A stretch of DNA of 59,374 nt, the filler included, from Dugesia japonica (taxonomy: Eukaryota), in NCBI GenBank assembly GCA_001938525.1. It is 6 parts of 6 records of this genome, joined end to end, with 100 filler letters (N's around TTAATTAATTAA, not from the genome) between each part and the next. Parts side by side here need not be neighbours in the genome. Positions count along the whole stretch, not along the records: positions 9,983 to 19,467 come from MQRL01221288.1; 5 more parts are not named here. One strand, 5' to 3'. This document shows, in pieces, positions 6,167 to 40,311 of the stretch (position 1 is its first letter; the number at the start of each line of letters is the position of its first letter). Under the pieces are notes generated by a model that did no database searches, was not told the DNA's origin, and saw only the letters and a program-made list of their open reading frames with translations. Both the position numbers and the translations under genes were made by a program.

Positions 6167-7747
6167 ATGACTGATGTAATTTCAGAAAATAAACTTATTT
6201 CTAATAGTAAAAAAAGGCGTGACAGAAAAAAGAAAGCTAAAGAAAGAAAGCGAAAAGAATTCGATGTTCTTAAATTAGAATGTATAGAAATTGATGTAGA
6301 ATATCCGACTTCTTTAGATAACATTGTTGAATTTGAATTAAAAGGAAGGTTTGAAAGATTTATAAATTATGAGAAGGATGAATTGAAGAGTGATACCAGA
6401 GATGATCCTAAAAATGCAAAAGTAACAAATGCCCAATCTCTAAATGAATTACCAATGAAAGCCAGAGCAGCAGCTATTTTACAAGATGATCATGATCGTG
6501 ATGAAAATGAAGAGCCGAAAATCGGTAAGAAACAATTGAAAAGAATGAATCGTATGAGTACAGCACAGTTAAAAATCAATGTGGAACAACCGGAGCTTGT
6601 TGAAACGTGGGATTATTGCAGCAAAGACCCTCTCTTGTTATTAGAGCTAAAAAGTATGAGAAACACAGTGCCTGTTCCAAGACATTGGTGTGCTAAACGA
6701 AAGTATTTACAAGGTAAACGTGGGTTTGAAAAACCTCCTTTTAAATTACCGGAATATATTGCAAAAACTGGAATTATGGAAATGAGACAAACAGTACAAG
6801 ATAAAGACAGTGATAAAACATTAAAAACTAAAATGAGAGAGAAAATTCGCCCAAAAGTTGGTCATGTTGATATCGATTATAATAAATTGCATGATGCATT
6901 CTTTAAAGATCAAGTTAAACCTCCTCTTACAATTCACGGGGATATTTATTATGAAGGCAAAGAATTCGAAGTTAAATTAAAAGAGAAAAAACCTGGTCAA
7001 TTATCTGATGAATTGAGAACATCGCTAGGTTTGCCCACTGGTCCAAATGCAGATAAATACCCGCCACCGTGGCTAATTGCAATGCAGCGGTATGGTCCTC
7101 CTCCGTCTTACCCAAATCTTAAAATCCCCGGATTAAATGCGCCAATCCCGTACGGTTGCTCGTTCGGTTACCATGCAAACGGGTGGGGTAAACCTCCAGT
7201 TGATGAGACAGGACGGCCGATTTACGGAGAAGTTTTTCTTGATAATTTGCCTATTCCACCTCCACCTTCAGATGATGATATTGACGGCGATGAAGGCAAC
7301 AAATATTGGGGAGAAATCGAATCTGATGAGGAATCGGAAGAAGATGAAGAATCAGAAAAAGAGGAAGAGGATGACGAGATGGAATGTGANNNNNNNNNNN
7401 NNNNNNNNNNNNNNNNNNNNNNNNNNNNNNNNNNNNNNNNNNNNNNNNNNAGTGTCGGACAAGGTTTGACCACTCCGCAAAGCATTGAGTTACGTAAGAA
7501 AGCGGTGGACGAAGAGTCGATACCAATTGAGAAACCTCTTTTCCAAGTCATACCACAGATCAAAGCTGAGATCGGATCAGCAATTATGGGTTCAGAAAAA
7601 CTTTATCAAGTACCGGAAATGATGGATCTGAAAAATAAGAAGCGAATTGCACCGACTCCTTCTGGAACGACTTCTGGGCAGAAATCGAGTCAGCCGCCTG
7701 AACCAGCAGAACCGAAATCGAAAAAGCATAAAGACTTCAAATTTTAA
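6167..7747 (+). CDS. SF3B2: Splicing factor 3B subunit 2 (SAP145/CUS1 homolog)
   Basis: Hallmark DUF382 and PSP motifs: RNTVPVPRHWCAKRKYLQGKRGFEKPPFKLP, DIDYNKLHDAFF, HGDIYYEGKEFE, PPPWLIAMQRYGPPPSYPNLKIPGLNAPIP, GWGKPPVDE, and the conserved C-terminus KKHKDFKF. An N gap at 7390-7450 makes frame continuity there an assumption. TTCTAG acceptor directly before the ATG, so an upstream exon or leader is possible. Confidence 0.95.
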   Translation: MTDVISENKLISNSKKRRDRKKKAKERKRKEFDVLKLECIEIDVEYPTSLDNIVEFELKGRFERFINYEKDELKSDTRDDPKNAKVTNAQSLNELPMKARAAAILQDDHDRDENEEPKIGKKQLKRMNRMSTAQLKINVEQPELVETWDYCSKDPLLLLELKSMRNTVPVPRHWCAKRKYLQGKRGFEKPPFKLPEYIAKTGIMEMRQTVQDKDSDKTLKTKMREKIRPKVGHVDIDYNKLHDAFFKDQVKPPLTIHGDIYYEGKEFEVKLKEKKPGQLSDELRTSLGLPTGPNADKYPPPWLIAMQRYGPPPSYPNLKIPGLNAPIPYGCSFGYHANGWGKPPVDETGRPIYGEVFLDNLPIPPPPSDDDIDGDEGNKYWGEIESDEESEEDEESEKEEEDDEMECXXXXXXXXXXXXXXXXXXXXXSVGQGLTTPQSIELRKKAVDEESIPIEKPLFQVIPQIKAEIGSAIMGSEKLYQVPEMMDLKNKKRIAPTPSGTTSGQKSSQPPEPAEPKSKKHKDFKF

Positions 7748-8585
7748 TTCCTGTAGTTTAATATATTGTTTTTCGTATTTTTTTCAATAGTATTATTATT
7801 ATTATCCTTCCGATAATTTGCTGGGTAACACACGTTTCGCAAAAAAATTTGGAACGTTTTTTTTTATTTTTAAATATAAAATTAGTTTAAAATTTTGGCG
7901 AATTTTATGTATCTTTTGAGATTTTTTTCTAAGATTTATTTGTGATACACAACTTCACATCGAAAAATATCTAAAATTGCTAATGCTTTTCAATATATAA
8001 AATTAGTTTCAAACTTTTGAAGAACTTTTAACATTCTGTCATTTGATTTTGACGATGAAGAAACCAGTTTAGAGATGACTTTAGAATATTGAAAAGTAAT
8101 TCAACATGGAAATGCCGAGATGTTATCTAGACTGAGATTCCAAGTATGATTACATTGTCAGATGTTCCTTGAGGATGGTGAGAAATTAAAGATCAAAGCA
8201 AGAATATTGTTGGGCTCCGAGGTTTTGATGTTTTATTTCTTCTCTTGGTTTTCGCACTCGATTATCTCGTATTCCTTTTATCTCATTATCTTCTATGGGC
8301 AGATACCCCTGAGCCGGCAGAAATTTGGCAATACTCCATGTTTTGGTCCATCCACCACGAGTCTTGTAATTTTCAATTTTGATTGCATTCGGCTCAACTT
8401 GTTCTTGTGTTATATATNNNNNNNNNNNNNNNNNNNNNNNNNNNNNNNNNNNNNNNNNNNNNNNNNNATTATGACTTATTATAATTGCATACACCATAAC
8501 GCCCATAATTTGTCATTCACTTTGGAACATAATTTTACCCCAATAGTGTTTCAAATGCGAGAGATCCCCCCCAAAAATTTTATTT

Positions 8586-8603
8586 ATCCCGGCTGAGTCC
8601 CCA
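8586..8603 (-). promoter_or_regulatory. tRNA-Pro-like primer binding site of an LTR retrotransposon
   Basis: Minus strand reads TGGGGACTCAGCCGGGAT, a 15/18 match to the canonical tRNA-Pro PBS TGGGGGCTCGTCCGGGAT. It lies 8 nt after an LTR-like end ...GATCCCAACA. Confidence 0.7.
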
Positions 8604-8611
8604 AATTTTTC

Positions 8612-9882
8612 TGTTGGGATCTTATGCAGTGGATGTTAAGGCTCAGAAAACTCATGAGACCCCAACGAGAAAAATGGTAGTAGTTTCCCAAGCTACTTTT
8701 CGTAAGAGAACCGGTGACCCTCATCCGCGCCACGGTGCAGTTCGCCTTACTTTCTTTCGGGTTCTGGGTATGATACTCGGTTGCGAGAGGTAACTTTCCT
8801 GCGCTAATATGCGGCGTGGACCAATCGCTTTATCACATCGAAATTCTATTATATTTAGACACTATCTTATCTTATCATGGTATTTAATCGTAATACTCCT
8901 TTATTCNAATGTATTATCTCTACAACTAGCTGAATGGTTTTATTACTAATGTGCAATTCTACCGTATCTAATACTATATGTTATCTCAACTATTATCATT
9001 ATCAAAATATTCCTTTGTTAGTCAAATCTAACTATTCATTTAGCTATAAGTTACTATTTACTATTAATTTTACTTTATACTTATCACTACTGTCATTATT
9101 TGTCTATAACTCAAGTCAATTACTTAAGTACCTTAGCTATTCCTATAGTTATTTCGTGATTATTTAATTACATTATTCAAATTTGGATTCAGGAACTCAA
9201 CACAACGCATTTTAAAATAAGACATTTATTGCTACAAAATTAGTTTTTATTAGTTCCATAATATTCGGCGAGCCACGCATCTACATCAACCGTATCCCAT
9301 GTTTGTATTGGGTTAGGGATAGGTGATGCTGGCGGCTGAAAAAACATGATTCTCCTGTCATCTGCTAATGGGTTTTCGATAACTTCTGGAGGGTAAGTTT
9401 TCTGATCTTTGATTTGTTTTTCTAGGAATTTAATCTTATCATCCTGTTTATTAATGGTTCGTTCTAATATACTAATTAACTGTTCCTTTGTTTCCTTCAT
9501 GCGTNNNNNNNNNNNNNNNNNNNNNNNNNNNNNNNNNNNNNNNNNNNNNNNNNNNNNNNNNNNNNNNNNNNNNNNNNNNNNNNNNNNNNNNNNNNNNNNN
9601 NNNNNNNNNNNNNNNNNNNNNNNNNNNNNNNNNNNNNNNNNNNNNNNNNNNNNNNNNNNNNNNNNNNNNNNNNNNNNNNNNNNNNNNNNNNCCTTCATAT
9701 TTAACCTGTAACAAAATAATAATAAAACATAAGTTAATTCAAAATATATTTCCCCGCAACCCTATCAATTTATCTGGGAAAACCCCTCCTAAAATAGTAA
9801 CGCATGAGAAACATTCTTAACTGGCCAAACAGACCTAATATATTATTTAAGAAACACTTTAAATAAGACATTACTCACTAAA
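8612..9882 (-). mobile_element. 3' part of a large 5' LTR (truncated by scaffold end) containing an ORF
   Basis: Ends in CCCAACA next to a PBS, with a GC-rich terminal ~200 bp. Architecture parallels 16547-17160. Confidence 0.6.
9240..9706 (-). CDS. LTR-borne coiled-coil ORF of unknown function (KIxFL family), interrupted by a gap
   Basis: TTGTTACAG acceptor at ~9707. Translation LISILERTINKQDDKIKFLEKQIKDQ..WDTVDVDAWL*, with AATAAA ~10 nt after the stop. Similar to 16742-16909. Confidence 0.5.
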
Positions 9883-9982
9883 NNNNNNNNNNNNNNNNNN
9901 NNNNNNNNNNNNNNNNNNNNNNNNNNTTAATTAATTAANNNNNNNNNNNNNNNNNNNNNNNNNNNNNNNNNNNNNNNNNNNN
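9883..9982. other. Artificial scaffold linker (N44-TTAATTAATTAA-N44)
   Basis: Identical 100-bp spacer with stops in all six frames. Recurs at 19468-19567, 28796-28895, 39857-39956 and 49691-49790. Confidence 0.97.
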
Positions 9983-12430
9983 TAATATATTTTTAAATTT
10001 AACGTTAATAAAATTTCGGATAAATTAAAATAAGATAAAATGTATTTATAAAATTCGACGTTAGATAAATTTTAAAATGTTTTGCAAATACTGGTATTTG
10101 ATGTTTTCCGTTTTGAATATGGAATTTTAAATTTGTTTAAGAAAACAAATTTATATGTATAGTTTTTGTTTGAATAAATTTTGTATTGAATTCGAGTTCT
10201 GATATTAATGATCAGACGAGTTTTCCAAATTCATCTAACATGTTGGCAGTGGTAAACACCTATGCGATCACAGAGAGATTGTTGCCAAAAATATTTTGCA
10301 GAGGCGATGATCTATTGAAGTTTATTAAACGGTGTGAAATATATTTTGAAGCAAAGAACATCATTGTTAAGAAAGATCAGGACCGTTGGACAACATGTAT
10401 GCTTCATGAAGATTTAATTGTAGCATATGTGAAGACCAAGAAGAAGTTGACGGAATTCGAGAGAGAACGCGATTAGCTTTTGAGAGCAAGAGAGACGTAA
10501 TAAAAGATTTACAGAATCTTTAAAGCTATCGATGTGGTGATAATGAACTTATGTTTCTTAAAAAAGTCGAAGATTTGGTCGATAAAGTTTAGCAAATTAA
10601 GAGCTGACGGAAGAAAAACTCTTATCAAAAATGCTAATAATTTGTGCAAATAGTAAAAAAGCAGAAGACGAAATAATCATGCAAAAATTTTAGAAAGTAG
10701 AAGATATTAAAGAAACGCTATCATTAGTTGAAAAAATAGAAAAAAGAGAACCTATTAACGTATTAAAGAGTTACGCAGGTGTAACACGTAGATAACGTAC
10801 TGGAGAGAGGAGACAAAATATCGAGAAGGTTGTATAAAGAACAGAATCAGAGTATTGGACATGCCAGAGTTATGAGCATACAAAAAGAGAGTGTCCCAAA
10901 AATTCTCATGTGGAATGTTGAACTTGCCACAAGAAAGAGCATTTAAGTAGAAATTGTCCAGGCAAAAAACCACCAAAATGTTTTGGATGTGGTAAGATTT
11001 TTCATATCAGAAAGAGGTTTAGAGACATTGTATGTGGTGGATGTAAAAGACCAGGTCACAGAGCAGAAGAATGTTATTCGAACATTAATAAAACTAGACT
11101 AGAAGGTAGATACAATTCTAAAAGCGAACAACAAACAAAAGATTGGAGTCGGACCAAACCAATCTATGCCATTCGAGATGAAAATGATGCTGAAAACGAA
11201 GAGATATTTTTGGGAGCATAATAGAAAATGAAGATCCGAGAAGAGAATACCCAAAAAATAGGGCTCCATCAGTAGAGGAGTTGGTCGGAGCCATTCATTA
11301 AACAAGATGCTGTTTGATTATCCTCAAGAGGCTGAGAAATGGAATGAAATGAGTAAAGTTTGAGGAAGTTTCAGTGATGCAGGAGATAACAAAGCGTAAG
11401 TGATATGAACAATTAAAGAGAAACAGAACATAGAAATTTCGTACGATAAAATGCAAGGGAGACTTAGCATTTTAGTAATGATCAAGGGCTAACAGTTTGA
11501 TTGTTTGTTAGATACAGGAGCAAGAATAAATGTGATGAGCATGAAAGGATTTAATAGACTCTGAGAAACAATGTTAGAGAAAAGCGAGGAACGATTGTAT
11601 TGCGCGAATAACAGCTCATTGGAGATGATTTGAAAGATACATGTGGAAGCTGTAGTTTTAGAGGTGTGCAAGGAAGTAACATTTATAATAGTAGAGAAAT
11701 TATTACCCGATCTAATTGGCGGAGTGGAATCCCAAAATAATTTTGGGTATCATCTTCCAACAAAGTGTAAGGCAGATATCAACAATTATCGAGAAAAATT
11801 GGTTTGCAACATCGAGTCAAAATGTGGAACACAGATACAGACGGGTGAACGATTGAGACATGCAATGGAGATATGTCAATTCATACGGAATTAGATCAAA
11901 ATTTTTGGACACGTTATCAGTAAAGAAGTTGTCAAAACAGATCTAACTAAAATAGAAGCAATTAAGAACTTTGATAAACCAAAATGTGTTAAGAAGATGA
12001 AAAGCTTTTTGGGAATTATCAATTACTATCGCAAGTTCATTAAAGATTATTCGAAAAAGCTAGATTGCTGGAACAACTGTGTAGTAGATCGAGTAACAAG
12101 AAGATTGAATGGCGAACGATTTAGAAGAAGTTTTTAATGGAATGAAAGAAGCACTAATAGTGTCTCCAATGTGTTTTCCAGATATAAATAGAGGATTTAC
12201 TTTGGACACGGATGCGAGTTTCAATACGATTGGGACAGTATTGTCTTAAAAGGACAACAATGGACAAGAAAGACTAATTGCAAATGGGTCACACGCAATG
12301 ACGAGTCACGAGAAAGGAGATTGTACTACGCGGGAAGAATTACTCGCAATTTACTATTTCTGTATTTATTTCAAACATTACATATATGGAAAGAGATTTA
12401 TCCTCAGAACAGACGATAAAGCTATAACTT
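9983..12430 (+). mobile_element. Degenerate Ty3/Gypsy LTR retrotransposon (LTR end, PBS, gag, protease, partial RT, RNase H)
   Basis: LTR end ..CATCTAACA at 10240, then PBS-like TGTTGGCAGTGG. Gag N-terminus and several CCHC knuckles (TCQSYEHTKREC, CFGCGKIFH, CGGCKRPGHRAEEC). Protease CLLDTGARINVM at ~11500. RT thumb FGHVIS..SFLGIINYYRKFIKDYS. RNase H FTLDTDAS and EELLAIYYFCIYFKHYIYGKRFILRTD. RT catalytic core is missing. Confidence 0.9.
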
Positions 12431-15072
12431 TGTATGTCTCACCGAGAATAAAAAATTATTTTTTCTGGAAATACTTATGATAATCAAATATATTCGGTTT
12501 TGTTTAACTCAGAATTAAAATCCAAACATATTTCCTATAGGGTTTGCTGAGCAAATGTTTTTGAATGAAATTTTGTGTTTTGGTTATTTTCCACAACTCT
12601 TTCTAAATCCATTAAAAGCATCGAACATATATAAGTTACTGCAAGCTAACGAATATAGTAAACAATATTTAAATTAGTTAATTTCGCAGACAATTGATGA
12701 ACCTTTTAGTGAATAATAATGTTGGGGTGAAACACCCAGTTAAGAAGAAATCAAGGCCAGGGGCCCAAATCATAAAACATCGAAGACGGTGGTTGGAAAG
12801 AAAACGCAGGGGAAAGAATATAATAATCAATCAGTAAAAGAAATCGAAAAGAAAAGCAATTATAAATAACTAATATTGTTAAAATATAACAAAAAATAAT
12901 CAATCGGAAAATAAAAATATAAAAAGAAGATGGATATGGAGATCTTGAGTGAACAAAAAATTTAACCAGCAACCATGCCAGTAATTAAAGAAAATTATCA
13001 AATTAATAATAAAAGACAAAAAAATTATTATAATTAATTTTCACAGAAAAAAATAATTAATTTGGACGGAAAAATAAATTGAAATTGAACGAAAATCAGT
13101 TTTTAGTGATTATCTCCGCTCGACATACTCACAGAGACTCGTGGAAAGAAAATCTAGAAAGAGAAAGATCTGGGGCAATAGGATTTGTCAACCCAAAAAT
13201 CGTAGCATCATCGGGAAGGTCCCTACAAGGGTTAGAAAAATGGGCCAATAAGGGGCCAGAAAAGGAAAATAAAACAAAGACGAGATCATCACATGGCACT
13301 ACAAAATTAGTCACTAATGGAAGCCAAAAAATCAATGAAAAATCTAAAAAAATTAGCACTGGAACCAATGAAAGACCATAATTTTGAATCAAAAATAGAA
13401 GCCAAATAGCAATGATGTTGAGTTGTATCTGGGAAACTATATAAGCCCCATGAAAATTAGAAGAAAAATACACATTTTTCATAAATTGTAAACTTCTGAT
13501 AGTTATTGTAGCATCTCTGAAATTTATTGGACTATCGAAGAGAAAACTTTTCTATTACTATCAACGGTGTGAATTATTTGAAAACACTTTGTTGGGCAAA
13601 TTGGTAGAATCGATCAAAGATTAATTTCGGCATAGTAACATTGGTCAATTATTCAGTGGATTTTTAACGTTAACTTATTACAGATCAAAATAGTCATGTG
13701 AACCCGAGAAAAATACTAGTGAACCATCATTCAGAATTTCGTCATAAAGAAAACAGACCTATTTACTCGTTCCCGTTGCAGAAAATCGTAATTATTCAGT
13801 AAGTATTCAGCCTGTTATAAAATTCGTTTTGAAATCATGAATTTTGTTTATGTAATAAATACTTGTCAAATGAAGTCTAGTTACTACATTATTAATAAAA
13901 TAAGTGTGGCATTAATCATTAATTTAATATTTATTTAGGATCTGTTTAAGTACTGCAAACATTTGGTTTAAACAGAAAATCATTAGTCAGTAATGACTTT
14001 CTTTCATTCTTGTTACTATTTTTAGCTATCATTGATGTGATTATGGATTAAAGGATGAAATTATCTAGTATGGTAGAGTCGTTGTTTAACCAGTAGTCAC
14101 CACACGCATTGCCATATGAACTAATCCAATCGTTAGGACTACTGCACTCATTTCACAAAGGTATGATAAATCAATAAATGACCTCATTGATAAATAACGT
14201 GACATACACACAGGACATGTGTGTATCAACAGAAATCTCTGACACAGTCATTATGCTAACAAGAATATTAGAATTGATTTACATCTTAACTAGTATCAGC
14301 TAATATCTTTATTTGTCTCATCAATAGATTCTCGACCAGAAAAAGAAGAAAAAACAACCACTTTTATGTATCAAGCAATGGCCGCTATTCTGTAAAATAT
14401 CACCTAAAGGATTTAGGGAGGCACCAATCTAATATGACTTTTTTTAACTAAGTGAAATTCCATGTTTGACTTGGGTATTCAGCCTTCACACAGATGGTAT
14501 TCGGTAATTTGATGATATTTGGAAATCATGAAAATATGGATTTAAAACAACATCAACTATAATTTCATCCTGGGACTCACACAATAATGTGGGTTGAGAG
14601 AATCAATAGCGTTCTACCATCAAGGAAAGTATATTGTTGTAATCACAATATATGTGGACTTGATTTTATCTTATTACTGATTTTGTCATATGTAGTAAAG
14701 GGTATATGGGTAATTAGATTTCAGTTGAATTATTTTGTTATTTAATGTCATTAAAAAATTTTTTTTCTTTTCATCATAATTTTATAATTAAATAAAGTTT
14801 AGCGCATGGTTGTAGTTAGCAGTTCAAAATACAGCTGTAAATGAATAACCGAGAAGGTTTTAATCCCCTACTGATAACGAGGGTTTGCTTCAGTTAATAA
14901 ACGGACGTTACCATTATATTTTCTATGATATAAAATTTTGCTAGCACATGGGGTTCACTCATCCTGTTACATTGATTCCAGCCGAAAAAAACTATTTTTA
15001 ATTACATCATTACCCACTAGGGGATAGGGTGATTCTACTACTTATTAATAATCAACTTTCATACGTTTAGTA

Positions 15073-15258
15073 ATGACAATAGAGCTCAGTTATGCCCTCC
15101 AGATCATCCGAAAGCAGCGACGAGTTGCTCGCCGAAAACAGCTGCTGGCCTACATTTTTTCTCGCAGAACCGTCGAGCATCCCGACGAGACGGATCTTAG
15201 CTGTTTCGTTGAGATGTTCCCTCTGAATGTTCAGGTGGGTATCGACACAGAAATCTGA
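15073..15258 (+). CDS. Small protein of unknown function, DETDL family copy 1
   Basis: MTIELSYALQIIRKQRRVARRKQLLAYIFSRRTVEHPDETDLSCFVEMFPLN. Acceptor AG at 15069-15070, AATAAA at 15290. Paralogs at 29741 and 30511. Confidence 0.6.
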   Translation: MTIELSYALQIIRKQRRVARRKQLLAYIFSRRTVEHPDETDLSCFVEMFPLNVQVGIDTEI

Positions 15259-15387
15259 AAGTAGTATCGTTAACGTTTTATAAAATAATAATAAACTTAT
15301 TGAATCTGTGTTGGAGTTTCTTATAGATTTAATTTATATATTAGCTAAATTCCTTTTTATAAACCTAAACCCATTTTATTTTTCTAG

Positions 15388-15724
15388 TGAATCACAAATG
15401 GGAAGTTTTGTTGGACCAACGCACTGGTCGCACAATATTTAGGAAGTACACGAATCCCTACAATCGGATTGATGGCGTCTTAGTAGATTACTCGAATTTA
15501 CCTAAGAAGGAGGCTGAGAACGAGCAGGAATGGGTCGAAGCCGAGCGCCAGGCTTTTTATACTTGAAATGGCTCGGATCGAACCTGAGAAGTATATCATT
15601 CCATCACCGCTTTCCCGCCTATAAATACTGGGGAAATTGGGACTGCCAGCGAATGGTGTTCAGGTCCATTAGTGATCCCTATCTCAGTCGAGCACTTACC
15701 ACCCTACACGAGATTATACAGTGA
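15388..15724 (+). pseudogene. NPYN-family module (frameshifted)
   Basis: Acceptor AG at 15386-15387. Translation KWEVLLDQRTGRTIFRKYTNPYNRIDGVLVDYSN, with a second internal RMVFRSISDPY repeat. AATAAA at 15729. Confidence 0.5.
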
Positions 15725-16107
15725 CATAAATAAAACATTATGGGATCTGAGAAATATCGCTGACGGGGGCGGATCCGAGAATGATGCACCAAACAATGGG
15801 ACTTGACTTTTATAATGTCATTAGTTATTTTTATCAAACGCTGTAGTAATAATAATAATTTGTTGTATTTTCAGCACCATTCTTATATCTTGTAGTTTAA
15901 TTAGGATTTTAATTTTTATCAAATAGGAATTAGTCGTAAGAAATATCTCGTTTAACTCGAGACTGATAATTTTTGAAGGTGTGTTCTTTTGTCTTCACTA
16001 TTGAATTATAAACCTCGCAAATGTTTCATTTTTATTTAGTCCATTCCTCCTTAACTCGTACCATAGCACTCACCAAAAAGTTGCGAGAAGTCGACGAGGA
16101 CTAAGAA

Positions 16108-16398
16108 ATGACTTGGGACCTATACCGTCTAGCGAAAAGGCGATGGAAAGCAGACGTTGCTAATTCCACTAGTAAAGTGAAAAGATATAAGGCCAAGTGC
16201 CTCACTTTTAAAAAGGAAGTCGAAGCCTCACACGACCAAGAGTGGGTGTGGAAAAGACAGATAGAGTCTTTCAGCGAAGTCATCCGGTCCTACCAAGACC
16301 GAGAGAATAAACTGGTCGATGATATTTTGAAATTACGGAATGATCGGCCGCTTGAACCCCTTTTGGTAGACAAGAGTACTCAAACTTCGCGGTCTTAA
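16108..16398 (+). CDS. Basic coiled-coil ORF of unknown function inside the LTR-like unit
   Basis: 96-aa ORF, GC-richer than its flanks, with heptad-like character. Acceptor AG at 16038-16039 and AATAAA at 16428. Confidence 0.5.
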   Translation: MTWDLYRLAKRRWKADVANSTSKVKRYKAKCLTFKKEVEASHDQEWVWKRQIESFSEVIRSYQDRENKLVDDILKLRNDRPLEPLLVDKSTQTSRS

Positions 16399-16741
16399 CT
16401 TTTTTAAATGTTGTGTTTTGTCTTTTAAATAAATATCGGGTGTCTAAAGTAATTCATTTGCGTTCATACAGGTGACGGTGATGGGGTCCCCGTTTAATTT
16501 TATGGGATAAATAAATTATATTCTGTCATAATTTCTTATTCGTTTAGTGCCAAGGATCCGATTCCCTACAAGTCTTAAGCGATGTCACCACCTGATACAA
16601 TAATTATTGGTAGAGAGACATGTTAAACGACAGAAGTAAATGGCCTTACTAAAACATCTGTCACAACGTAATAAGTTAATCAAAAAGATGGATGTGATCG
16701 TGAAAAAGTAGAGTGACCTGGCAACGCAAACCAAACAACTC

Positions 16742-16909
16742 ATGCAAAATAAGATAGATTTTTTGAAACATTATATCTCCGACCTGTCTCGTCAACTAGG
16801 CCACATGTCCTGTTTACAATGGGACGATAACGACGACACGGCGGTGTTCAATTTTATACCAGAAGAGCCTACCCAGTGGTTAGACACGGGGGCTATGGAT
16901 CTAATGTAA
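16742..16909 (+). CDS. KIxFL-family small ORF (likely 3' part of a module starting at acceptor 16547)
   Basis: MQNKIDFLKHYISDLSRQL..DDTAVFNFIPEEPTQWLDTGAMDLM*, with AATAAA at 16917. Resembles ORF 9240-9500(-). Confidence 0.45.
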   Translation: MQNKIDFLKHYISDLSRQLGHMSCLQWDDNDDTAVFNFIPEEPTQWLDTGAMDLM

Positions 16910-18289
16910 ATTTAGAAATAAATAAATCTTAGTTTTTAATTTTTCCTAATCGTTATAAGTGAATTTGAAGAAGGGAAACCAAAGAACCCAAACTAAAGGT
17001 GTACGAGTGTGAACCTCCCGTAAGGGTTGGAGGTCAACCGCTCAACATTGAATATCTAACACATGGACGTTAGATTTAAATTCTTGAAAGGAATCCCCTG
17101 AGGCCCGTTTTTCCCCAGCCAGCGTTCCTTTTCACCGTCAGCTCAGGTGGAACCCCAACAATAATATTGATTTCGACAAAAAGGTTGAAACTTTATTGAA
17201 TAATTATAAATCTAATAAGACTTTGTCAAATGCTGGGTCATTTATTTTATCGATTCTTGAAGCTTTTAAAAGGTTTAAGTATATAAAAAATATATAAAAA
17301 GATATCAAATATGAAAACAAACAAATGAAATTATTTTCCGTTGATTTTTTTGTAACCTAAATTATCAAACATGTTTATGGAATTTAATTAAGATAATTAG
17401 TGTCTAGTGTTAGATACTTGTTTACAATTATAAATTAAATAAAAACAATCTACACTTTTTAATGCATTATCATTTATTTAAAAAAATGAAATATATTGCA
17501 ATCAATATAATTTTATCTTCAGTTATATGACAATCTTAGTTCTTCAGTTTCTTTAAATGATTTTGAAAAGATGCGTTCCAGATCAAATGTACCAGAAGCC
17601 AAAAATAGTAAGTATTTCTAGTATTTAAGCCATTTAATAAATTAAAATTAAAGCAAATTATTAATAATAACAAATTAATTAAATTATTAATTACAATTTT
17701 AAATGGCATGAATTTCATGATTTAAATCAAAAATCACATTCTACAATAGCCAAAATATTTAATGTTTTTTAGTTAAATTAGCAGTGAAATGTAAAAATTA
17801 TTATTAGATTTCTAATCATTAAGCTATTAACGCCCAAAATAAAACTACAATTGAAAATACTGTTTATTTACTATTTATTTAAACAAAACAAAAAATAGTT
17901 TATTAAAAGAAATTCAAAAAAATAAATAAAATATTACCTAGCATGCAGTAAATGAAAAATATCGTCACAATAATATTTTGTTTTAATACAGTTTAATTGT
18001 AGACAATAATCAAAAATAAATTTATCTATATTATTATTTTTAAGAAAAATATAAATATCTTACCTGAATAATCTTATAATTTTTAATTTTTATATAGCAA
18101 ACTCTATTTTTAAAAAATTGAGCTTTTAATTCTGAGTTCAATGATTCCAAATTTGAAATTGTACGATAAACATGGACCGAGAATATTCGAATTTCCAACG
18201 AGCTAAAATTCGACCAATAAAATTCGAAATCGAAAATATTATTTACTAAATCAAAATCCTACATTTTTAAATAACTCAAATCTTTCGAT

Positions 18290-18580
18290 CACTTCGTCGG
18301 CGGAAGGGGAGGTGATTGAGTGCACTAGTATCTATCTACTAAATTATCATGACGATTACCTGAAATATGGATTTGTTGTATCAAAAAACGATTCCTCACT
18401 GCCGTTTCATTTGACATGCCTCAATACTCTAAGCAACGAAACGATGACACATTAATCACATGCATAAGTTTTTGTTAACAAAATGTTTTTCACGTTTACA
18501 AAATTATCCGTTTTTAAATGGGTGCGCCTCGAAAATTATTTTAAGCACCACGATCTGAAAAATGGTTTCCCGATTCTGTA
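18290..18580 (+). mobile_element. hAT Buster/Charlie (ZBED5-like) remnant
   Basis: YHDDYLKYGFVVSKNDSSLPFHLTCLNTLSNETM (~18345-18447) matches the Buster N-terminal Y..YL..GF..P.C..C...LSN..M motif. Ends are approximate. Confidence 0.6.
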
Positions 18581-19073
18581 CTAAGCAATCATACATATTT
18601 AATCAAAGATTATTTTTTATTTGGAAATTGAATGAATTTAAATAGTATTATATAATTTAATGTTTAATATAAATTTTTATTAAAATAAATCACCACTAAG
18701 ATTTATGATAAGAGCAGTGTTAATTAAAAATTTTACAATCAAAATTATTTTCATACAAATAATATCCGTGAAATAATTTCTTTAAGAAACTTGGAATCCA
18801 CTAGGATTTTCAAATCCCAAAGGTTATGTAAGATATCTCACATTAATGTATATCAGCCTATTTTTCGTATTTGCAGTGCTATTTAAACAGTGTTGTTCAA
18901 GTTCTTGGATCATGCGAAGATTTCAAAAGGGACATTTATAACTGTGAATGGATTTCTACCGAGAAAACAAATGATTCAATATTTGTTGAAGGTTAGGTAT
19001 AATTTTGCATTTTTTGTATTAATTTTAATATATTTGGTCGATATTTAAATGAAATTTATTAATTTAATAAATT

Positions 19074-19290
19074 ACCCAAACCGAGCAATCTCGAAGAAAT
19101 ATTGGACTAAATTCACCTAAACCAGCCAAAACTAACTAAAATAACCAATCCCGATGAAATTTTCGACCAAATCACCCAAAATTTACCTAAAACCGACCAT
19201 GTTTGCCCAAACTGACCAATCCCGAGGAAATATTCTACCGAATTCACCTGAACCAATTAAAAATCGAACTTCTTCGACCTCAACGAATAA
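19074..19290. repeat. Degenerate tandem repeat (ACCAATCCCGA..AAATATT..CCAAATTCACC units)
   Basis: Three to four imperfect ~60-70-bp units in a C-rich patch. Confidence 0.55.
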
Positions 19291-21059
19291 ATCCCCAACC
19301 AAAAAGCTTGAAAAATTTGTTACCACATGAAAAGCCTAATAACTACTACGGCTTAAAAAGCCAAAAAAAGTTTCCCAACTAAATGCACAGGGAAATACTA
19401 AAACAGTAAAGTAATATAACTTAGTATGATGCATTTTTTAAATTCCTAAATACATGAATTAGGATTANNNNNNNNNNNNNNNNNNNNNNNNNNNNNNNNN
19501 NNNNNNNNNNNTTAATTAATTAANNNNNNNNNNNNNNNNNNNNNNNNNNNNNNNNNNNNNNNNNNNNAATCATATAAGAAATATGTGCAGATTTAAATTC
19601 TGCGTTTAAAAATATCCATTTTGCTATTTTATCATAAGTATTTCTCGAAAAAATAATTTTTCATCCTCCGTGAGACATGGAACCTGGGAATTTTCTATCT
19701 TTTGAACAAAAAATATTTTTACAACAAACCTTACACAAAATTTGCTTGGAATTATATTCTGAAATTTTAAAAAAAAATAATTATAAAAATAAAGAAAAAA
19801 AAATAATTATAAAAATAAAGAAAAAAAAACTAATAATAATAATAAAAAAAAGGTTTCAAAAAAATAAAACTTAAAAAAAAATAAATAAACCATAAAACAA
19901 AAATTTATTTATAACAAGTAAAATGCAGCTATATTAAAGATAAAGAAACATAAAAGCAACTATAATAAGGAAATTGCAAATTGAATTCAACTATAACAAA
20001 GAAAATACGACATGAATTCAATTAAACAAAGAACGTGAGTCATATTTGTGCAACATTAATNNNNNNNNNNNNNNNNNAATGCACGATAAATCAAAGTTTT
20101 AATAAGGTTTCTTTAGAATATTATTGGATTTTATAGGTTATATATATAGTTTTTTATAGAGATTTAAAAGATTTTATTAGTTTGAAAATGTTTTTAAAGT
20201 TCATAAGATAATTTAATTTTAATAAATTAATAATTAAAAAAATTTTAATTTATCAATAAATTAATTTTTTTGTAAGTATGTAAAATTAATTATTATTATA
20301 TAGAAATTATTTATTTATTTTTGTTTAACTAAGTTAAATAAATAAAATGGTAGATGACCTTGAAAATCAATAATTATAATTGATAATTATTTCATAATTC
20401 AATTACAAAGTAAGTGACCATTTATTCGTTAATTTATTTTAATGATTTTTTTTATTCTAGATGAATTCAAATGAATTCAAAGAAAAATATTTCAACAAAC
20501 ATGACTAGAAGCCTAAACATGGTAAGTTTGATTAATTACTTTATTGTTATTGATTTATCTTTTAGACTGAAAAAGTAAATGATGTGTCTAAGGAATTTTA
20601 TGACAATATGACAAAAGAATTTATAAATAGAGGTTAGATTTATTAAGATTAAATTTTAGGTTAATGACTTTCTTTAATAATTATATATTAATGATTTTTT
20701 TAAAATTTGATTATAATTTCATTTCATTTTATAATAATAACAATATAATAAAACAATATAATAATATAATTACCATGTAATCACCTTATAAAACCCCATA
20801 GAAAACATATTGAAGTTAGTAAAATATTTTTCCTGAAATTTATGAATATTTGTATGAACTTTGTATATTTTATTAATAAAATTATATGTAAATTGTACAT
20901 ATTAGGTGTATAATTGGGTTTTGAATGTTCTTAATACATTTAATGTATGGATTTCTTTGAATTATTTGCGTTCATGTAATGTAATAATTGAATGTATGCT
21001 GTTTGTTGTTTCATTGAGTGCATTGGGTTTATTGCACGATTTTCTTAACTCTTCTAAGG

Positions 21060-22650
21060 TTTTCATAAACCCTATATACTCATAAACCATGCAATACATG
21101 GTTGCTATGTTAATAATACAAGGTAACTATGCAAATAATACACTCGTAAGCCTTAAATTACACGGTTAATATGTAAATAATACACTTTTAATATTTAAAT
21201 AATAAAAGGTAACTATGCAAATAATACAATCATAAACATTATATTACACGGTTAATGTGTAAATAATATACTCATAAACCCTATAATACACGGTTACTAT
21301 GCAAATGATACAAAGTAACTAGGTAAATAATACACTCATAAACCCTAAAATACATGGTTAAATTGTAAATAATAAAAGGTAGCTATTCAAATAATATAAT
21401 CATAAAAACTATAATTCAGGGTTACTATGTAAATAATACACTCATAATCCTTATAATACATGGTTGCTATGTAAATAATATAATAATATACTCATAAACT
21501 CTATATACTTATTAACATAATCATAAACATATTTTCTTATAAGTTGTTATATAGACTTATTAGTTATGTATGAAAATGTTCCATGAATTTATGATTTTAT
21601 TTTGAAAAGGTTTTTTATTATTTTGTATAGAAACATTCCCAGCTAATATGTTTTTATGAAAAATTGTCACTACTTATATGATTTTATAGAAAAATTGACT
21701 AAGTCTTGTAAAATTTTATTATAAATAAATACTAAATTAAAAACTAAAAAATAAAACAAAGACTGAATAATAATACATTTATTTCTGAACATAAATCACC
21801 GGAAACAAAAATAATTGTCATAATTGAGAAGATAATTCTGATGGTTCTACATGGTAATCATCAGATTAAACTTAGTGCACCCAAAACAATCAGGTGCGCA
21901 AATATCAGCTGCCATATAGTAATATACCACTACTTCTGGAAGAAACGGTTGTATTTCTTCGTCCAGGATCCCCAATTCTTCGCATATTTCAACCAGCATT
22001 CCTGAATTCAATTTATTAATAAAATTAAAAAATTAATAAAAATCAAACCTATCTTACTAAACTAAAGATATATATGAAAATGTTACACACTTATAAATCA
22101 TATACACTCAAAATCCCTATTATATACATACAAATATTTACTTACAAAGTATTTATACAGTAATTTTCAGTAATATATGAAATAGTTTCTACACTCATAC
22201 ATCATATAAACTCGAAAAACCTATACTACATAGTTGTTCAGTAAAAAATACAATGCAAATATATAAATATTACACTCTATTATGTTATAAATGTTATAAC
22301 CCTATATAACATTGTTACTATGTATAAAGTAAGCCTTAAATTACACGTTTGCTATATATATAATTCCTTTAAAAGTCTTATATTTTATAAACCTTATATT
22401 TTATGGTTGCTATGTAAGTATAACACTCATAAACTTTATAATACATGATTACCAAGTAAATAATACCAGTTAACTATGCAACTAATACAAAAAGAAATAC
22501 ATTAAACAGTTGTTATTTACATATTACATAGTACCTAAGCAAATAATACACTTGAAAACCTAATATTACACGGTTACTATGTAAATAATATACTCATAAA
22601 CCTTATATTTAATGGTTGCTATATAAATAATACAAACATAAATTCTATTC
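21060..22650. repeat. ~42-bp minisatellite (GGTTACTATGTAAATAATACACTCATAAACCCTATAATACAC) with 21-bp half-units, in two blocks
   Basis: About 10 copies at 21060-21510 and further copies at ~22200-22650. Confidence 0.85.
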
Positions 22651-22729
22651 AGTCATAAACATATTTAATTATTAAGTATTTTTACAATAGTTTTAGGTTA
22701 TATATGTTTCTCACTCGTAAAATCCTATA

Positions 22730-23600: not shown

Positions 23601-24310
23601 GAGTGAGAAAAGAAAATCACCAGTATGAATCTACTTACGTAGGGCAAAGATTCTTCTAACACATTCGCTGAAGTATGGGTAAGAAAAAATTATTATGAAA
23701 ATGTAAAATTTATTTTCAAAAAACTATTACAATAAATATATCATTTATAATTATAAATAATTATATTTTATTTTATAAAAATATTTGGTTATAGGTTAAA
23801 GATTTATTTGATATTAGTCTCACACAAATCATGCCGCATTAATATAGCCGTCTGTCCATCATGTTTTCTAATAATACTTAACGGTTATTAAACCAATATT
23901 AATCGCTATAGTTCTACTCTTCTTCAAAATGCTTTCTACTTTTTCAGCTATTAAATATTTCAGTACTTTGCACCATGAAAAAGTTTTATTTCTATTAGCC
24001 ATATTTTATTCGTAGTCAACAGCAAAGTTGAGAAAATTGATGGATGAGTTGCAATTCTAATTCTACAGATATTTGGACTTCCAAATTCTAAGGTTAGTGG
24101 GGCGAGCAGTACTAAAACCTGTTGATGATGTTATACGCAGTGAACATTCGTTTAAGGATTCAATCAAAAATCAAGTAATGAATATGTTGTTGAATGTGAA
24201 GAAAAATCTACTTAATGCTTTAAAGGAAGTTTTTAATGGACAGCATAAAAGTGAAATACGTTAACAAAAAAATAAAATAATATCGACTATAAGCAAAAGA
24301 CGGTGATTAA

Positions 24311-25578
24311 ATGGAACCATCTTTCCAAAAAAGCATGTATACCAAAAAAACTGAGTTATCGTATTTTGACCATAATATACTACATGTTATGGTTGAAAGC
24401 TTAACGTTTAAAGAAATTTACTAAAATGATTTAATAACTGGGTATGCTGGACAACAAATTGAGTTCAATATTATTGGTTCAGATAATGAGTACTTGGATT
24501 TCAATGATACATTGCTAATTATCAGAATGAAGACTGTTAAAAATGATAAAAAGGATTTTTCATCAACTGGCAATACTGATATGATTCCATTTAACTATTT
24601 CTTTCACATTATATTCAAAGAAGCATCATTAACGCTAACTAATATTAAGGTTGAAGATACAAATGATATGTATATGTAAAATGCGGGAATTGGAGGAGCT
24701 TTGAATTTTGGATCAGATACAAATAACACGTTCTTTGAAGTCTTTGGTTATCATAAAGAAGATAACAAGAGAAAAGGTGGGATTAAAAAGTCTGTCAAAC
24801 TGACGCTCTGTGGTGCACTTAATTTAGATTTTTATGACCTCTCAAAGTATTTGTTGCCAGGATTCAATCAAGTTGACGAGAAATATTGGTTCAGTAATTT
24901 ACAAATATACTAAATGCACTGGTGAAACAGCTGAGATTAATCCACAACGATATATTATAGAAGCAAATTTAGTAGTGTGAGGTGTTTGCGTTGATCAATC
25001 GGTTATAACTGAACACCTTCAAGGATTGGAACATCAAAATGCAATCTAAATTTTCCAAATTACAAACGTCGTACATTTTAAAATTCCAAAAAACTTAAAT
25101 GGAGAAAATAAAGATAATCTATTTTCAGGTGAAAGATTACCGAAATTGGTTTTGATTGCTTTTCAATCATCGAAACAAGCAAGTTGTGATTATGGGTTAT
25201 TTTGCTTGACATTTTCAAATTTCAGTGTAAAGTCAATATGCTTGGCAAGAAGGGTTGATTACCGAGAAACATATTTTACTGACTTTGATACCGACTATAC
25301 CAAAGCATATGTACAATCAATTATTCGTAACATGGGTCAGTTAAATGTAGATCAAAATAATGGTATTACAATGAAAGAATTTAAAGATTTATATACGTTA
25401 TACAATTTTGTATTGGCTCCGGACATTGCTTTTAATCAACCGTATTTACCAAAACATAGAAATTTCAAGTTGAATGTGTGATTCCATAAAGTCCTGGAAG
25501 AATCAGTAACAATGTATGCACATAGAGTATTTGATTCGGAAATGTCAATCACCACAAATGGATTAGTATGTGTGTATT
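24311..25578 (+). pseudogene. Polinton-type double-jelly-roll major capsid protein, pseudogene
   Basis: ATG at 24311. Fragments KTELSYFDH, IEFNIIGSDNEYLDFNDTLL, LPKLVLIAFQS, YVQSIIRNMG..NNGITMKEF and NFVLAPD. Many stops and frameshifts. Confidence 0.85.
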
Positions 25579-25621
25579 GCATAGCAAAAATTATTAATGG
25601 TTTTTTATAAAGAGATTTGTT

Positions 25622-25975
25622 TTGATTGATATTACTTTTCAGATTGAAGCAATATTGAAACGTGAGTTGGTTAGTAGCCGATTCAAAATAGTGTATCTAT
25701 TGTGACGATTTCCAGACTTTTTCCCAAGTGAACCTTATGTAATCAATACACATACATCGAATTTAGATGGTGAGCAATAAATTGCCATTTCTGTNAAACC
25801 AAATTTTACTCGTTTATTTGATTTAATAGGTTTATTTTATTCACCAACAATGGTAACAAAATTGGATCGTATGCAACAGCATGCCGAACACAGTCAAATC
25901 ATGAATCAGATTCCTTCGACATTCTTATGTGGACAATATGGTATTGAATTGCTCAAAATGGAACCGTCATTAATT
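25622..25975 (+). pseudogene. Adenain-like cysteine protease, pseudogene
   Basis: YVINTHTSNLDGEQ*IAI (catalytic HW lost), LFD and FLCGQYG. Homologous to 41616-41972. Confidence 0.8.
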
Positions 25976-29086: not shown

Positions 29087-29740
29087 TATTTTGAAATTAT
29101 TATTATTATTATCACTATTACTATTATTATTGTTATTATACTCCTAATGATATTAGTACTATTAGTTTCATTATCAACATAATTATTACTGTTTGTTTTA
29201 ATTCTTTTATTATTATTATGTCACTCGTTTAAAGGTTATCATTAATTTGGTTAGTAACAGAAACACCAACATTACAATTCCCAGCATCATCGTCATTATG
29301 GATTTTAGTTAGGATCTTTATTGCCGATGTGTTAATTATCATCACGATTCTGTGTATTAACTGCGAATACTACTATCAGTGACGAGTGTTCTTATTATGG
29401 TAGCCTGCATAGCGTTAAGATTATTAAACAACCACCCTAACATCTATCATCCTGGTAGTACTCGGCGTTATCCGTAAGGACTTTAGTATTTACCTTAATA
29501 CATTCATGATCAGCCTTCTCATTATTATCGATTTTACTAAAATAAGTAATAATGTTAGGATTAATAGATTAAAAATTATAACTCACAATATTATTTATGA
29601 TTTAGGATTACTATTCAACTATAATAATTTCGTGATTAATGTTTTGGCTACGATAAAATATAATATCATTCTAACTCATCAATTTTCTTATGATGCCTTA
29701 ATTTATTGCAGTTTCGTTGTGATAATTTAATTTGTTGTAG

Positions 29741-29936
29741 TATAATATCTGAGATTCTGCAGGACACTATAAGATTCATTCGACAAGAAAGAGAAAGGTC
29801 ACGCTGCAAACAGTTGATTGGACATATTTTGGCGCCTGATCAGATATTGTTCCTTGATGAAACCGACTTAATCTTTTTTGTCGAGTTATTTCCATTAGCG
29901 GCAAAGATGAGGGTGTATTTGGACGCCCCCTCATGA
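29741..29936 (+). CDS. DETDL family copy 2
   Basis: After acceptor TTGTTGTAG: ILQDTIRFIRQERERSRCKQLIGHILAPDQILFLDETDLIFFVELFPL. Followed by an NPYN module (TSRMVFKRPANPYNTLAGVLVDRSN, ~29955-30050) and AATAAA at ~30235. Confidence 0.55.
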
Positions 29937-30510
29937 TTTTAATGCATTTTCTGATTTGACGAGCCGAATGGTATTTAAGAGACCAGCCAACCCATATAAT
30001 ACCCTAGCTGGTGTCCTCGTAGACCGTTCGAATATGGACCCCTCCTAGGCAGATTTTCAACGTGGCCGTGATATGTCTGAACGATGGTTGCATCGTCACT
30101 GGCCCAATGAAAGAACTAAATCCCCGATCACTCCGTCTACTCCAACGCTAGCCGATTTGGAAGATTATCTTCAGCCCCCATGTTCATCATCTTAGTGACT
30201 TTTACCATTAATCTGCAGTGTTGCATGTGACTCGTAATAAATTTTATTAGTTGTCTCTATCGTTACATAATGCTTTATAAAAATTAATCCAATGATCAAT
30301 TTTATTTATTTATTTACGGGGGCTATCATTATGATAATCATAGTTATTCTTAACATTTTTCTGAGGACATCATTATTGCAGGATTACCGTTATGCGTACT
30401 AATAGTAATCATTATTAATCCCATCTTTAAAATTCAGGTTCCCGAAGACTTTCACAACCAAATCGTCGGCAGTTCCAGCTACTAACTTTTATAATTTTCT
30501 TTCTAGAATT

Positions 30511-30687
30511 ATGCCTGATGTTATATATAATACATTGCGATTGATCCACAAAGAGAGGAAGACAGCCCGTCAGCGACAATTAATCGCACATATTATGTTC
30601 CCAGGAAAGGTAAGGCATCCAGATGAAACAGATCTAGCCTGCTTGGCTGAGATGTTACCCTTAAACCCGGATTGTAACAAATCCTGA
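30511..30687 (+). CDS. DETDL family copy 3 (58 aa; absent from the ORF track)
   Basis: MPDVIYNTLRLIHKERKTARQRQLIAHIMFPGKVRHPDETDLACLAEMLPLNPDCNKS*. Branch-like ACTAAC at 30481, acceptor AG at 30505-30506, AATAAA at 30720. Next acceptor at 30820-30821 opens an NPYN module (TGRIMFRHLRKPYNRD). Confidence 0.6.
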   Translation: MPDVIYNTLRLIHKERKTARQRQLIAHIMFPGKVRHPDETDLACLAEMLPLNPDCNKS

Positions 30688-32998
30688 ACTTTTGCTGTTG
30701 TTGTATATTTAATAGTAATAATAAACCGCTCAGTTAATTTATTGAGTGTTACATTATTCCTTTGATTTATTTGAACGATCTTTTATTTACCCACTATTTA
30801 GTTAATTAATCTCTTTTATAGTGTCCGAATATAGATGGCGACTGATATGCACTCCACCGGTCGAATAATGTTCCGTCATTTGAGAAAACCCTATAATCGG
30901 GATGCAGAAATCTAGGCCGATATTATACATGAGATATTAATTTGAAAGTAGGCAACATCGATTGAATCAAAAAACGAAAGTCAAGTAACTGATAATAATG
31001 TTGAAAAGTAGTTTAAATAGTCCGAATTGTAATGCGTGGGAAATGAAATGATGAATTATTCAAAATTCTGAATGTTCAAATTGATCGAAAATGAATGTTA
31101 TTGAATAAACAAACGACAATTTATCAGAGAAGAACAATAATGTTTATCAAATATATCAAGGATATAATTATCATTATGAAATTTTGTTGTTTCGGGAGCA
31201 CGGTCGGCGAATTTTAGTATATAACTGGAAGATTATTACTTTAAATTTAATATACTTTGGAAAATTATTGATCATGAAATGGCACTCCAATTATGTAAGT
31301 ATTTATTGCATTGTAATTCTTATAATGTTCATTTAAAATTTGGCGCATTAATATTTTTTATTGATATGCGCATAATTAATAATTTATTTTATTATTATAA
31401 TGTTCGACCAGTGTATATAGTATATGTTGGATTAAAGGAATTTTGGTAAATGATTTTAGTAAATACATTTTAGTAAATTTTGAGTAATGTTTTTGGTAAA
31501 CAATTTGATTAAAGAAATCAAGTAATGCGTTTTCTGTAACGATTTTGGTAACAGTTGAATTAACATTGAAGTAATAGTTTTATTAATTGAGCACTGGAAT
31601 TTATTTTGACTTATATTTTATATAATTTTGTTGATATGAAATTAATTAAAGTTGTGCTAAATAGATCATTTAAAATCGACCTGTGTATAATAATTATAAA
31701 AAAAATTGTAACTTATGTATAAGTATTTAGTTAATTAAATGCTCAAAATGATATAATTATTATAATTCAAGCATGTAGAGAAATAGAAAACGCAGAGCGC
31801 ATTCAGATAAACTATGGTGATATCCAAAATAAGTTTTTAAACTGCAATAATTATTATTTTAATGAAATTGTGGCGCATGTTTTTTCTACATACAATCACA
31901 CCGTTAATAATATAAATAATCTGTAGTGATATAAACCCCCCTTTATTTTAAAATATATTTATGTTAAGATTGCCTGTGTACATTCTTTAAAGTTAAAACA
32001 AAACTTTTGTCACTTGGGAAGAACACCATTTTTACATGTTTTAAAATTTATTTATTCAATGTTACGCTTTTAAATTATTTTCTACAATGTGTTGAAATTT
32101 TAGCTTCCTTACTATATTTCACATGTCTTCGAATAAAAACGAGCTTTGAATCCTGATTCGCTATTGTTGAAAACGAGAACTTTCGACTAGGGAAGCTGAA
32201 AAATAGATATTTGGTGAATGCAAAATGGTCGTCTACGAAAACTGTTTCACGTTGGTAAAATTATTTTCATACTAGTGACATTAATTTGGAAGACTAGCTA
32301 TATTTTACACCATTTAACTTTAAACTTTCCTTATCAATGTAGCAGTTTTAACAAGGTTGTCGATTCAAGTCATTTGAGGAAGTTGAAGAAGCATGAAAAT
32401 AATTCTTCGAATCAAAACCCAAATAATCGTAATTTAATAAGATTCGGACGACTAGATTTGATTGCAAAAATTTGTTGAGAATGATGAACTTTATTTTGAA
32501 AAGAAGTAATTATTTTTATAGCAAAAAGAAAGATATGGATTGGTTTCATAAACCTTTCCAAAAATGTCTAGTAACTTTGCTCTATCTCAATAATCTGAAT
32601 TAATTAATAAGATGAATCATTTCACTTTATATTTTTTAAATTTCTCTTTTGCATAACTCTTTTCATCTTACAGAATCAGTTTATCCAATATATAAAAATA
32701 AATTAACAATAGAAGCAATATTTGAAAAAAAGAAATAAAATTTCAAAATCTGTAACTTATTAAAAAAAAATATTTACTCATTAAAATACAAAAACGAAAA
32801 GGAAAATAAACAAAATATAAAAAAGAAAATCAAAACTGTATATATAAGGAAATTCCACAATTTATCCAACAAAATGTCTGACAAATAATCCGAAAATTAT
32901 ACAGAAAAAATAAGAAACGTTTACAGTCAAAATTCAAAGAATAAAATCTAAAAAGCAAAAAAATATAATTAATAATACAATAAGTCAAACAAGAATTT

Positions 32999-40304: not shown

Positions 40305-40311
40305 CGATAGG

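Follow-up and report, generated by a model that had tools for sequence, protein, structure and literature searches.

The locus described here lies in a window of 59,374 nucleotides (nt), filler included, of the genome of Dugesia japonica (GenBank assembly GCA_001938525.1), in which six parts of six records are joined end to end; positions 9,983 to 19,467 come from MQRL01221288.1, and all coordinates count along the whole window. Positions 12720-17160 are occupied by a unit of 4,441 bp that has ATAA on either side and contains one spliced gene, here called gene 2, as well as several further modules that are likely coding. The unit proved to be a single insertion, and we hold it, with moderate confidence, to be the solo long terminal repeat (LTR) left by a giant planarian retroelement of the gypsy type (Burro-like), an LTR that harbors one spliced gene preserved by selection and likely three or four more. 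The boundaries of the unit and the repeat that it interrupts are as follows.

12549..12719, plus strand: interrupted host repeat, left part (resuming at 17161 and continuing to about 17290); multi-copy, with flank depth in the thousands
12716..12719, plus strand: left copy of the target-site duplication, ATAA, read from the sequence; empty sites hold about one ATAA
12720..12728, plus strand: left terminus TGTTGGGGT, an integrase-type TG end whose junction is crossed by contigs with 0 differences
17152..17160, plus strand: right terminus ACCCCAACA, a CA end; empty-site joints reach 17160-17162
17161..17164, plus strand: right copy of the target-site duplication, ATAA, from the sequence and the empty-site joints

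The two ends of the unit match each other in inverted orientation over 9 bp and none beyond, giving it the TG..CA ends with short inverted repeat of a gypsy-type solo LTR. Positions 12715 and 17160 both being A, a 5-bp duplication with an end lacking CA is formally equivalent; the 4-bp duplication was preferred because the CA end is canonical. When the window was scanned for 9-bp inverted ends starting with TG, 0.3-8 kb apart and flanked by a 4-bp repeat, 5 pairs were found, where 30 local shuffles averaged 1.7. The 4 pairs other than that of the unit were almost pure A/T, and an arm with at least 5 G/C was produced by 0 of the 30 shuffles. On its own, the end pattern is only moderately rare and, as a bare pattern, weak.

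Public DNA contigs of the same organism were aligned to positions 12220-17660, this stretch or part of it being present in 20 of the 24 runs listed. In DNA runs X1 and X5, contigs covering 12460-12741 crossed the left junction with 0 differences; in X1, a contig covering 17047-17660 did the same at the right junction. Sites devoid of the unit were also found: 6 of the 15 joints listed (43 in total) jump from 12628-12698 to 17160-17162, five of these six being present in both DNA runs and one also in 5 RNA reads. In the four empty-site rows with listed letters, the distance to 17161 was 40, 15, 16 and 36 nt, where 41, 17, 17 and 45 nt would be expected with one ATAA and 45, 21, 21 and 49 nt with two. 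Three of the four rows are thus 1-2 nt from the one-ATAA length and 5-6 nt below the two-ATAA length; the fourth is 9 nt shorter, has a larger gap of its own and is uninformative. Since other copies of the interrupted repeat cross the site without the unit and with approximately one ATAA, 12720-17160 is shown to be a single insertion with a true 4-bp duplication. The 9-bp inverted ends and ATAA duplication reported in a preliminary description of this DNA are therefore present where they had been placed, with boundaries proven by the empty sites and the junction-crossing contigs. That the ends might belong to different repeats bracketed by a chance ATAA, a possibility which that description had itself raised, or that the unit might be an assembly artefact, could draw on the abundance of ATAA in this DNA and on the four other A/T-only pairs satisfying the same formal rule. 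This explanation is refuted, and we give it next to no credence: empty sites join the flanks exactly here in two runs of DNA and one of RNA, contigs without a single difference cross both junctions, and sibling copies cover the interior throughout.

The host repeat is transcribed from copies lacking the insertion, as evidenced by the 5 RNA reads crossing the empty site. Open frames are present on both sides of the unit (12549-12719 and 17161-17620), with RNA reads also found at 17498-17660, and the interrupted repeat looks like an exon belonging to a spliced and transcribed gene family or element with multiple copies.

The coding content of the unit is best documented for gene 2, two relatives of which lie elsewhere in the window.

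15071..15238, plus strand: gene 2 exon A, with an ATG at 15073 and the motif HPDETDL; 43% and 36% identical to the two paralogues in the window
15239..15387, plus strand: likely phase-1 intron of gene 2, 149 nt, with donor and acceptor in the sequence and a 148-nt counterpart in the paralogue at 30496
15388..15806, plus strand: gene 2 exon B, the first part of which has tblastx matches in both paralogues
29736..30200, plus strand: decayed gene 2 paralogue, seemingly intron-less, outside the unit
30496..30920, plus strand: second decayed gene 2 paralogue, likewise outside the unit and in tandem with the other; its candidate intron is similar in size and phase

Comparison of the window to itself with tblastx matched 15071-15806 to these two decayed tandem paralogues (E = 1e-16 and 9e-9). 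Over five ungapped alignments totaling 198 codons, identity at codon positions 1, 2 and 3 was 0.58, 0.73 and 0.31, respectively, in stretches chosen by tblastx, a program that favors positions 1 and 2; 61 of 90 identical residues were encoded by a different codon. Because third positions diverge while residues stay conserved, gene 2 is shown, on the strength of codon comparison, to be protein-coding and to have been under long purifying selection on its protein. The two matched parts are, as judged from the three copies, exons of one predicted gene, since the candidate intron measures 149 nt in the unit and 148 nt in the paralogue at 30496 and is apparently absent from that at 29742, where the second matched part follows the first within ~60 nt, with a frameshift and without any intron that would fit. 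The frame of exon B is broken by stops at 15564 and 15585, and 15588-15806 may be part of the same protein as the rest of the exon. G+C content at third codon positions (GC3) ranges over 0.48-0.58 for the two gene 2 exons together with modules 4 and 5, compared to 0.25 in the host SF3B2 gene found in the same window; exons and modules so far above the host gene in GC3 are therefore no recent capture from the host. The 29736-30920 region is probably a remnant of an older, diverged relative. Hydrophobic frames full of stops occupy 29240-29700, upstream of the paralogues.

The other modules and the non-coding parts of the unit are listed below; the module frames having been picked after inspection, the associated P values are optimistic.

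12729..13106, plus strand: A-rich 5′ stretch, AT skew 0.29-0.45, with TATAAA at 12861 and 12918
13107..13381, plus strand: module 1, in which an acceptor-like site is followed by 91 open codons; 0 stops where 5.8 are expected
13939..14300, plus strand: possible fifth module, further decayed and preceded by an acceptor-like site; its 120 codons include 4 stops where 9.0 are expected, P ~0.05
16040..16398, plus strand: module 4, 119 codons, helix-rich and charged, with an in-frame stop at 16102; 1 stop where 6.8 are expected; GC3 0.50
16548..16909, plus strand: module 5, 120 codons, with in-frame stops at 16601, 16637 and 16709; 3 stops where 7.6 are expected; GC3 0.48
16917..16926, plus strand: last AATAAA words, candidate poly(A) signal
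17077..17116, plus strand: sub-terminal 40-nt stretch common to much more abundant, transcribed relatives, as seen from depth and from the loose ends that DNA and RNA runs alike show at 17076/17077 and 17116

Modules 1, 4 and 5 each have a T-rich AG site at their start and AATAAA words beyond their end, with candidate donors 60-200 nt upstream of each acceptor, and together with 13939-14300 they likely represent three or four further genes. The coding strand of module 1 (GC3 0.31) is unsettled between plus and minus, a minus-strand open frame of 140 codons (13551-13129; 0 stops where 7.2 are expected) overlapping it. At least four coding modules had first been proposed; four were found near the expected places, coding being shown for one spliced gene and likely for three or four more. 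The first kilobase, which had been regarded as promoter-like, is strongly A-rich and carries TATAAA words, with no transcript start seen in the RNA runs. A leader exon shared by all modules, the candidate acceptors of which are all in phase 1, was considered as one possibility. A hammerhead at the 3′ end of the unit was considered and dropped; Rfam returned three matches, all falling far under the gathering score.

Siblings of the unit are collinear with it over the whole interior at ~88-90% identity (34 of 354 and 38 of 316 letters differ in two examples). Summed depth over 13494-15131 was 85-158 in X1, compared to ~10-14 for single-locus contigs, which suggests roughly ten sibling copies, depth not being a copy number. 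Against a depth near 80-120 in the spacers between modules, peaks reached 2495 at 13130-13311, 960 at 15132-15313, 2153 and 16616 within 16042-16405 (the latter, at 16224-16405 in module 4, being the highest of the unit), 2342 at 16770-16951 and 13026 at 16952-17133. These peaks coincide with the reading frames and with the 40-nt stretch located 45 nt from the right end; the 13939-14300 module has none. Short segments of the unit thus occur in far more copies than do the spacers. Most of the sibling depth in X1 disagrees with this copy at 16601 (133 of 144) and at 16637 (133 of 157), and the corresponding stops look private to it. A joint from 15295 to 12712, present at single-locus depth in both DNA runs, probably represents another copy's left junction within AT-rich flanking DNA, although it may also reflect a nested insertion or a chance alignment; no second right junction of another copy was among the 15 of 43 joints listed.

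TG..CA ends with a 4-bp duplication are, in the excerpted text of PMC2836005, the signature of gypsy-type integrases, whether of LTR elements or of Ginger transposons, and it is from these two traits that we infer a gypsy-type integrase to have inserted the unit. Were the unit a complete but non-autonomous DNA element mobilized by an integrase-like transposase of the Ginger type, with cargo genes between very short inverted ends, it would share the TGTNR end pattern and the 4-bp duplication; Ginger2 moreover prefers AT-rich targets and introns may occur (PMC2836005, in excerpt), as they are easily retained by any DNA element. However, the inverted repeats given in the same excerpt measure 40-270 bp for Ginger1 and 50-180 bp for Ginger2, as opposed to 9 bp in the unit, and the intron-less paralogue is better explained by passage through RNA than by a DNA element. 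No transposase family was matched in the open frames scanned, a gene that a non-autonomous copy need not have. Altogether, we regard a Ginger-type origin as unlikely.

Equally unlikely, in our estimation, is an internally deleted LTR element whose ends derive from ordinary, shorter LTRs and whose genes come from an internal accessory region. The internal part of Burro does carry accessory open reading frames (ORFs; PMC6431247, in excerpt), the gene 2 paralogues sit in a region without visible termini, and short module parts are common to many more copies than the spacers. Yet neither a second LTR nor a long inverted repeat was found when the unit was matched to itself, and the best internal matches of its terminal 30-mers were 18/30 and 16/30. 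A single deletion would have left one LTR end repeated inside; as neither end recurs, a full or simply deleted LTR element is improbable. Nor would a private deletion call for siblings that cover the interior collinearly at similar depth, although a non-autonomous derivative that had spread could produce the same picture.

The absence of gag and pol claimed at the outset held in a Pfam scan of six open frames of the unit, in which no gag, pol or transposase family was matched; the frames scanned were equally devoid of Pfam matches to the BIR, BCL2, MATH and env families. Searches of Pfam, PHROGs and the Protein Data Bank (PDB) returned matches below cut-off only, modules 1 and 5 having been compared with Pfam, PHROGs and the window only. 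Module 4 yielded one candidate and 0 matches in 5.8 billion proteins and 0 matches in 1.84 billion representative proteins. The three-copy alignment of exon A yielded 331 candidates and 0 matches among longer proteins, and matched 0 of 221 stretches in metagenome contigs and 0 of 70 in viral contigs; neither the metagenome nor the viral contigs contained the sub-terminal motif in exact form. ESM Atlas clusters retrieved with module 4 (0.92-0.93, nameless, low recognition) and condensation-domain clusters retrieved with exon A (0.85, 63-71 of 256 features in common) were rejected and kept as leads only. Compact genes, codon use unlike that of the host and the lack of a homologue in the sets searched would also befit some other integrase-mobilized, virus-like gene cassette, such as a satellite of a Polinton-like or other element, and the window holds other fragments that are probably Polinton-like. 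Long inverted repeats, AG..CT ends and 6-bp duplications characterize Polintons. The unit bears no Polinton hallmark, and neither Pfam nor PHROGs matched a capsid, polymerase, ATPase or integrase in the frames scanned, making a cassette of this kind more doubtful still than the two preceding alternatives.

A solo LTR thus stands as the best fit, by exclusion and by host lineage. Planarian giant LTR elements of the Burro type exceed 30 kb, with an internal part of up to 25 kb and thousands of copies (PMC6431247, in excerpt). Such dimensions leave room for LTRs of several kilobases, and thousands of giant-element copies would fit the depth peaks of 2,000-16,000 on parts of modules 1, 4 and 5 and the 3′ end. 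The unit resembles Burro and GYPSM1 of dugesiid planarians in its flatworm host, integrase-type ends, very high-copy relatives and accessory ORFs of unknown function. Of the gene-bearing giant solo LTR originally proposed, the single unit, the duplication and one spliced gene are borne out, and its standing as an LTR is probable, on grounds of exclusion and lineage.

Several observations weigh against the interpretation of the unit as a solo LTR carrying spliced genes. No sibling was seen beside a primer-binding site, polypurine tract or gag-pol in the reads and contigs, none of the 21 loose ends listed (out of 1,559) fell at either terminus, and no recognizable termini were found near the paralogues at 29.7-30.9 kb. 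A decayed gag-pol at ~10100-12430 was rejected as the internal region of the unit, as another repeat cuts it at 12433 and the host repeat lies between it and the unit. We make no claim of membership in Burro. As regards the genes, the acceptors preceding exon A in both paralogues fall outside phase 1; exon B departs from the pattern of the reading frames in having no depth peak (292, 125, 95); and the acceptor-phase shuffle test placed 3 of 4 sites of the real unit in one phase under the rule used, for a mean of 1.5 sites in the shuffles. Folding of 16960-17160 was no better than that of shuffles on the plus strand (z 0.42; minus strand, -1.81). In the two RNA runs used, of which ~25% and ~6% were read, depth was 0 over 13494-14585 in both runs and no splice joint was listed inside the unit, leaving no intron supported by reads; of 485 RNA reads from X22, none showed 99% likeness to the unit.

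Over the unit as a whole, RNA depth was 0 in most of the interior, did not exceed 1.6 on the modules and came to 3-5 close to the right end, and the few RNA reads derive from diverged relatives. Being so few and so diverged, they do not show this copy to be expressed, and its introns are predicted from homology only. The present solo copy is a decaying relic and not an active cassette. The suggestion that solo LTRs would stay able to express their genes finds no support here, given the in-frame stops and near absence of RNA reads, although lasting expression may be possible for young copies.

Under the solo-LTR interpretation, an integrase would have inserted a full element at the site, with the genes located in the U3 part of its LTRs on the plus strand. 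Their messages would be spliced and separately polyadenylated, chiefly from the 3′ LTR of intact elements, and reverse transcription would copy the genes into both LTRs at each round. Occasional reverse transcription of partly spliced RNA could remove the intron and thereby generate an intron-less paralogue, tandem duplication could add paralogues, and LTR-LTR recombination would leave a single copy between the original duplications, such solo copies then decaying. Expression from a solo copy would depend on the first exons, whose donor may lie outside the LTR, as the precedent of MMTV (mouse mammary tumor virus) may require. More broadly, and with rather less confidence than for the unit itself, the LTRs of planarian giant retroelements may carry a battery of four to five spliced accessory genes that belong to new families and are spread across the genome in LTR copies numbering hundreds to thousands. 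At the same tentative level, these genes may duplicate, lose introns and diverge between subfamilies, forming a second gene compartment beside the giant polyprotein. By analogy, and more tentatively again, the encoded proteins could be accessory factors of the element acting in trans on the host, in silencing or cell survival. Burro1 B-IAP, an apoptosis inhibitor, is mentioned second-hand in an excerpt of PMC13465017, according to which the giant elements of planarians reportedly influence the survival of stem cells.

Precedents exist for parts of this arrangement. The sag gene of MMTV is a whole gene in U3 with a spliced message, and nef of human immunodeficiency virus overlaps U3 (PMC12789967, in excerpt); sag function requires a donor in env, according to a title cited in the same excerpt. 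MMTV has one gene in its LTR, compared to four or five modules here, one with an intron of its own, and Pfam indicated no likeness between them. The Ogre elements of plants have LTRs of 1.9-6.5 kb, like the unit, and one or two extra ORFs in the internal region (PMC6431247, in excerpt), and it is also in the internal region that this excerpt describes the accessory ORFs and domains of Burro, in contrast to genes inside the putative LTR here. Ginger1 and Ginger2 share TGTNR ends, a 4-bp duplication and introns with the unit and differ in their 40-270-bp inverted repeats and transposase gene (PMC2836005, in excerpt). Single genes in an LTR and LTRs of several kilobases are thus already known, whereas no battery of four to five modules with an internal intron in one LTR came up in the literature searched. 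Nor was a multi-gene planarian LTR described in the literature searched, mostly titles and abstracts, although the original Burro papers may draw such ORFs; the excerpts of PMC8532177, PMC11410931 and PMC13238120 contain nothing on LTR gene content. LTRs are regarded as regulatory DNA, and their solo forms as debris with no coding role. If LTRs do carry selected, spliced genes, every insertion would double the gene set and every solo LTR would leave one behind. Such small conserved element genes, as yet unannotated, would then be a direct target for RNA interference and expression work, and could be hidden under wrong annotations among the orphan genes of planarians.

Other features were noted in the DNA around the unit. 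The stretch at 10100-12433 contains a heavily decayed gypsy-type gag (zinc knuckles), a protease, a partial reverse transcriptase and RNase H; the repeat that cuts it at 12433 recurs inverted at 19573-19678, and relatives are very high-copy and transcribed. An intron-less single open frame for the splicing factor SF3B2 (DUF382 and PSP domains) lies among repeats at 6167-7747, its best named relatives being from Platyhelminthes and its closest protein 90% identical. These flatworm relatives and the DNA itself, rich in A/T and dense in repeats, fit a triclad planarian as the probable host. Two copies of one region, 77% identical, occupy 23998-25953 and 39986-42383; their frames presumably correspond to Polinton capsid, cysteine protease and nuclease genes, and gave a weak Pfam match to Peptidase_C5 only (E 0.09) and no PDB match. 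Remnants of hAT-type transposases are present on the minus strand at 47559-49061, with a BED finger matched in Pfam, and at 1452-2018, with a dimerization domain. A minus-strand frame at 44049-44522 matches the Pfam family Rost (rolling stone; E 9e-10), and 21060-22680 consists of arrays of a 21-22-nt / 42-nt minisatellite.

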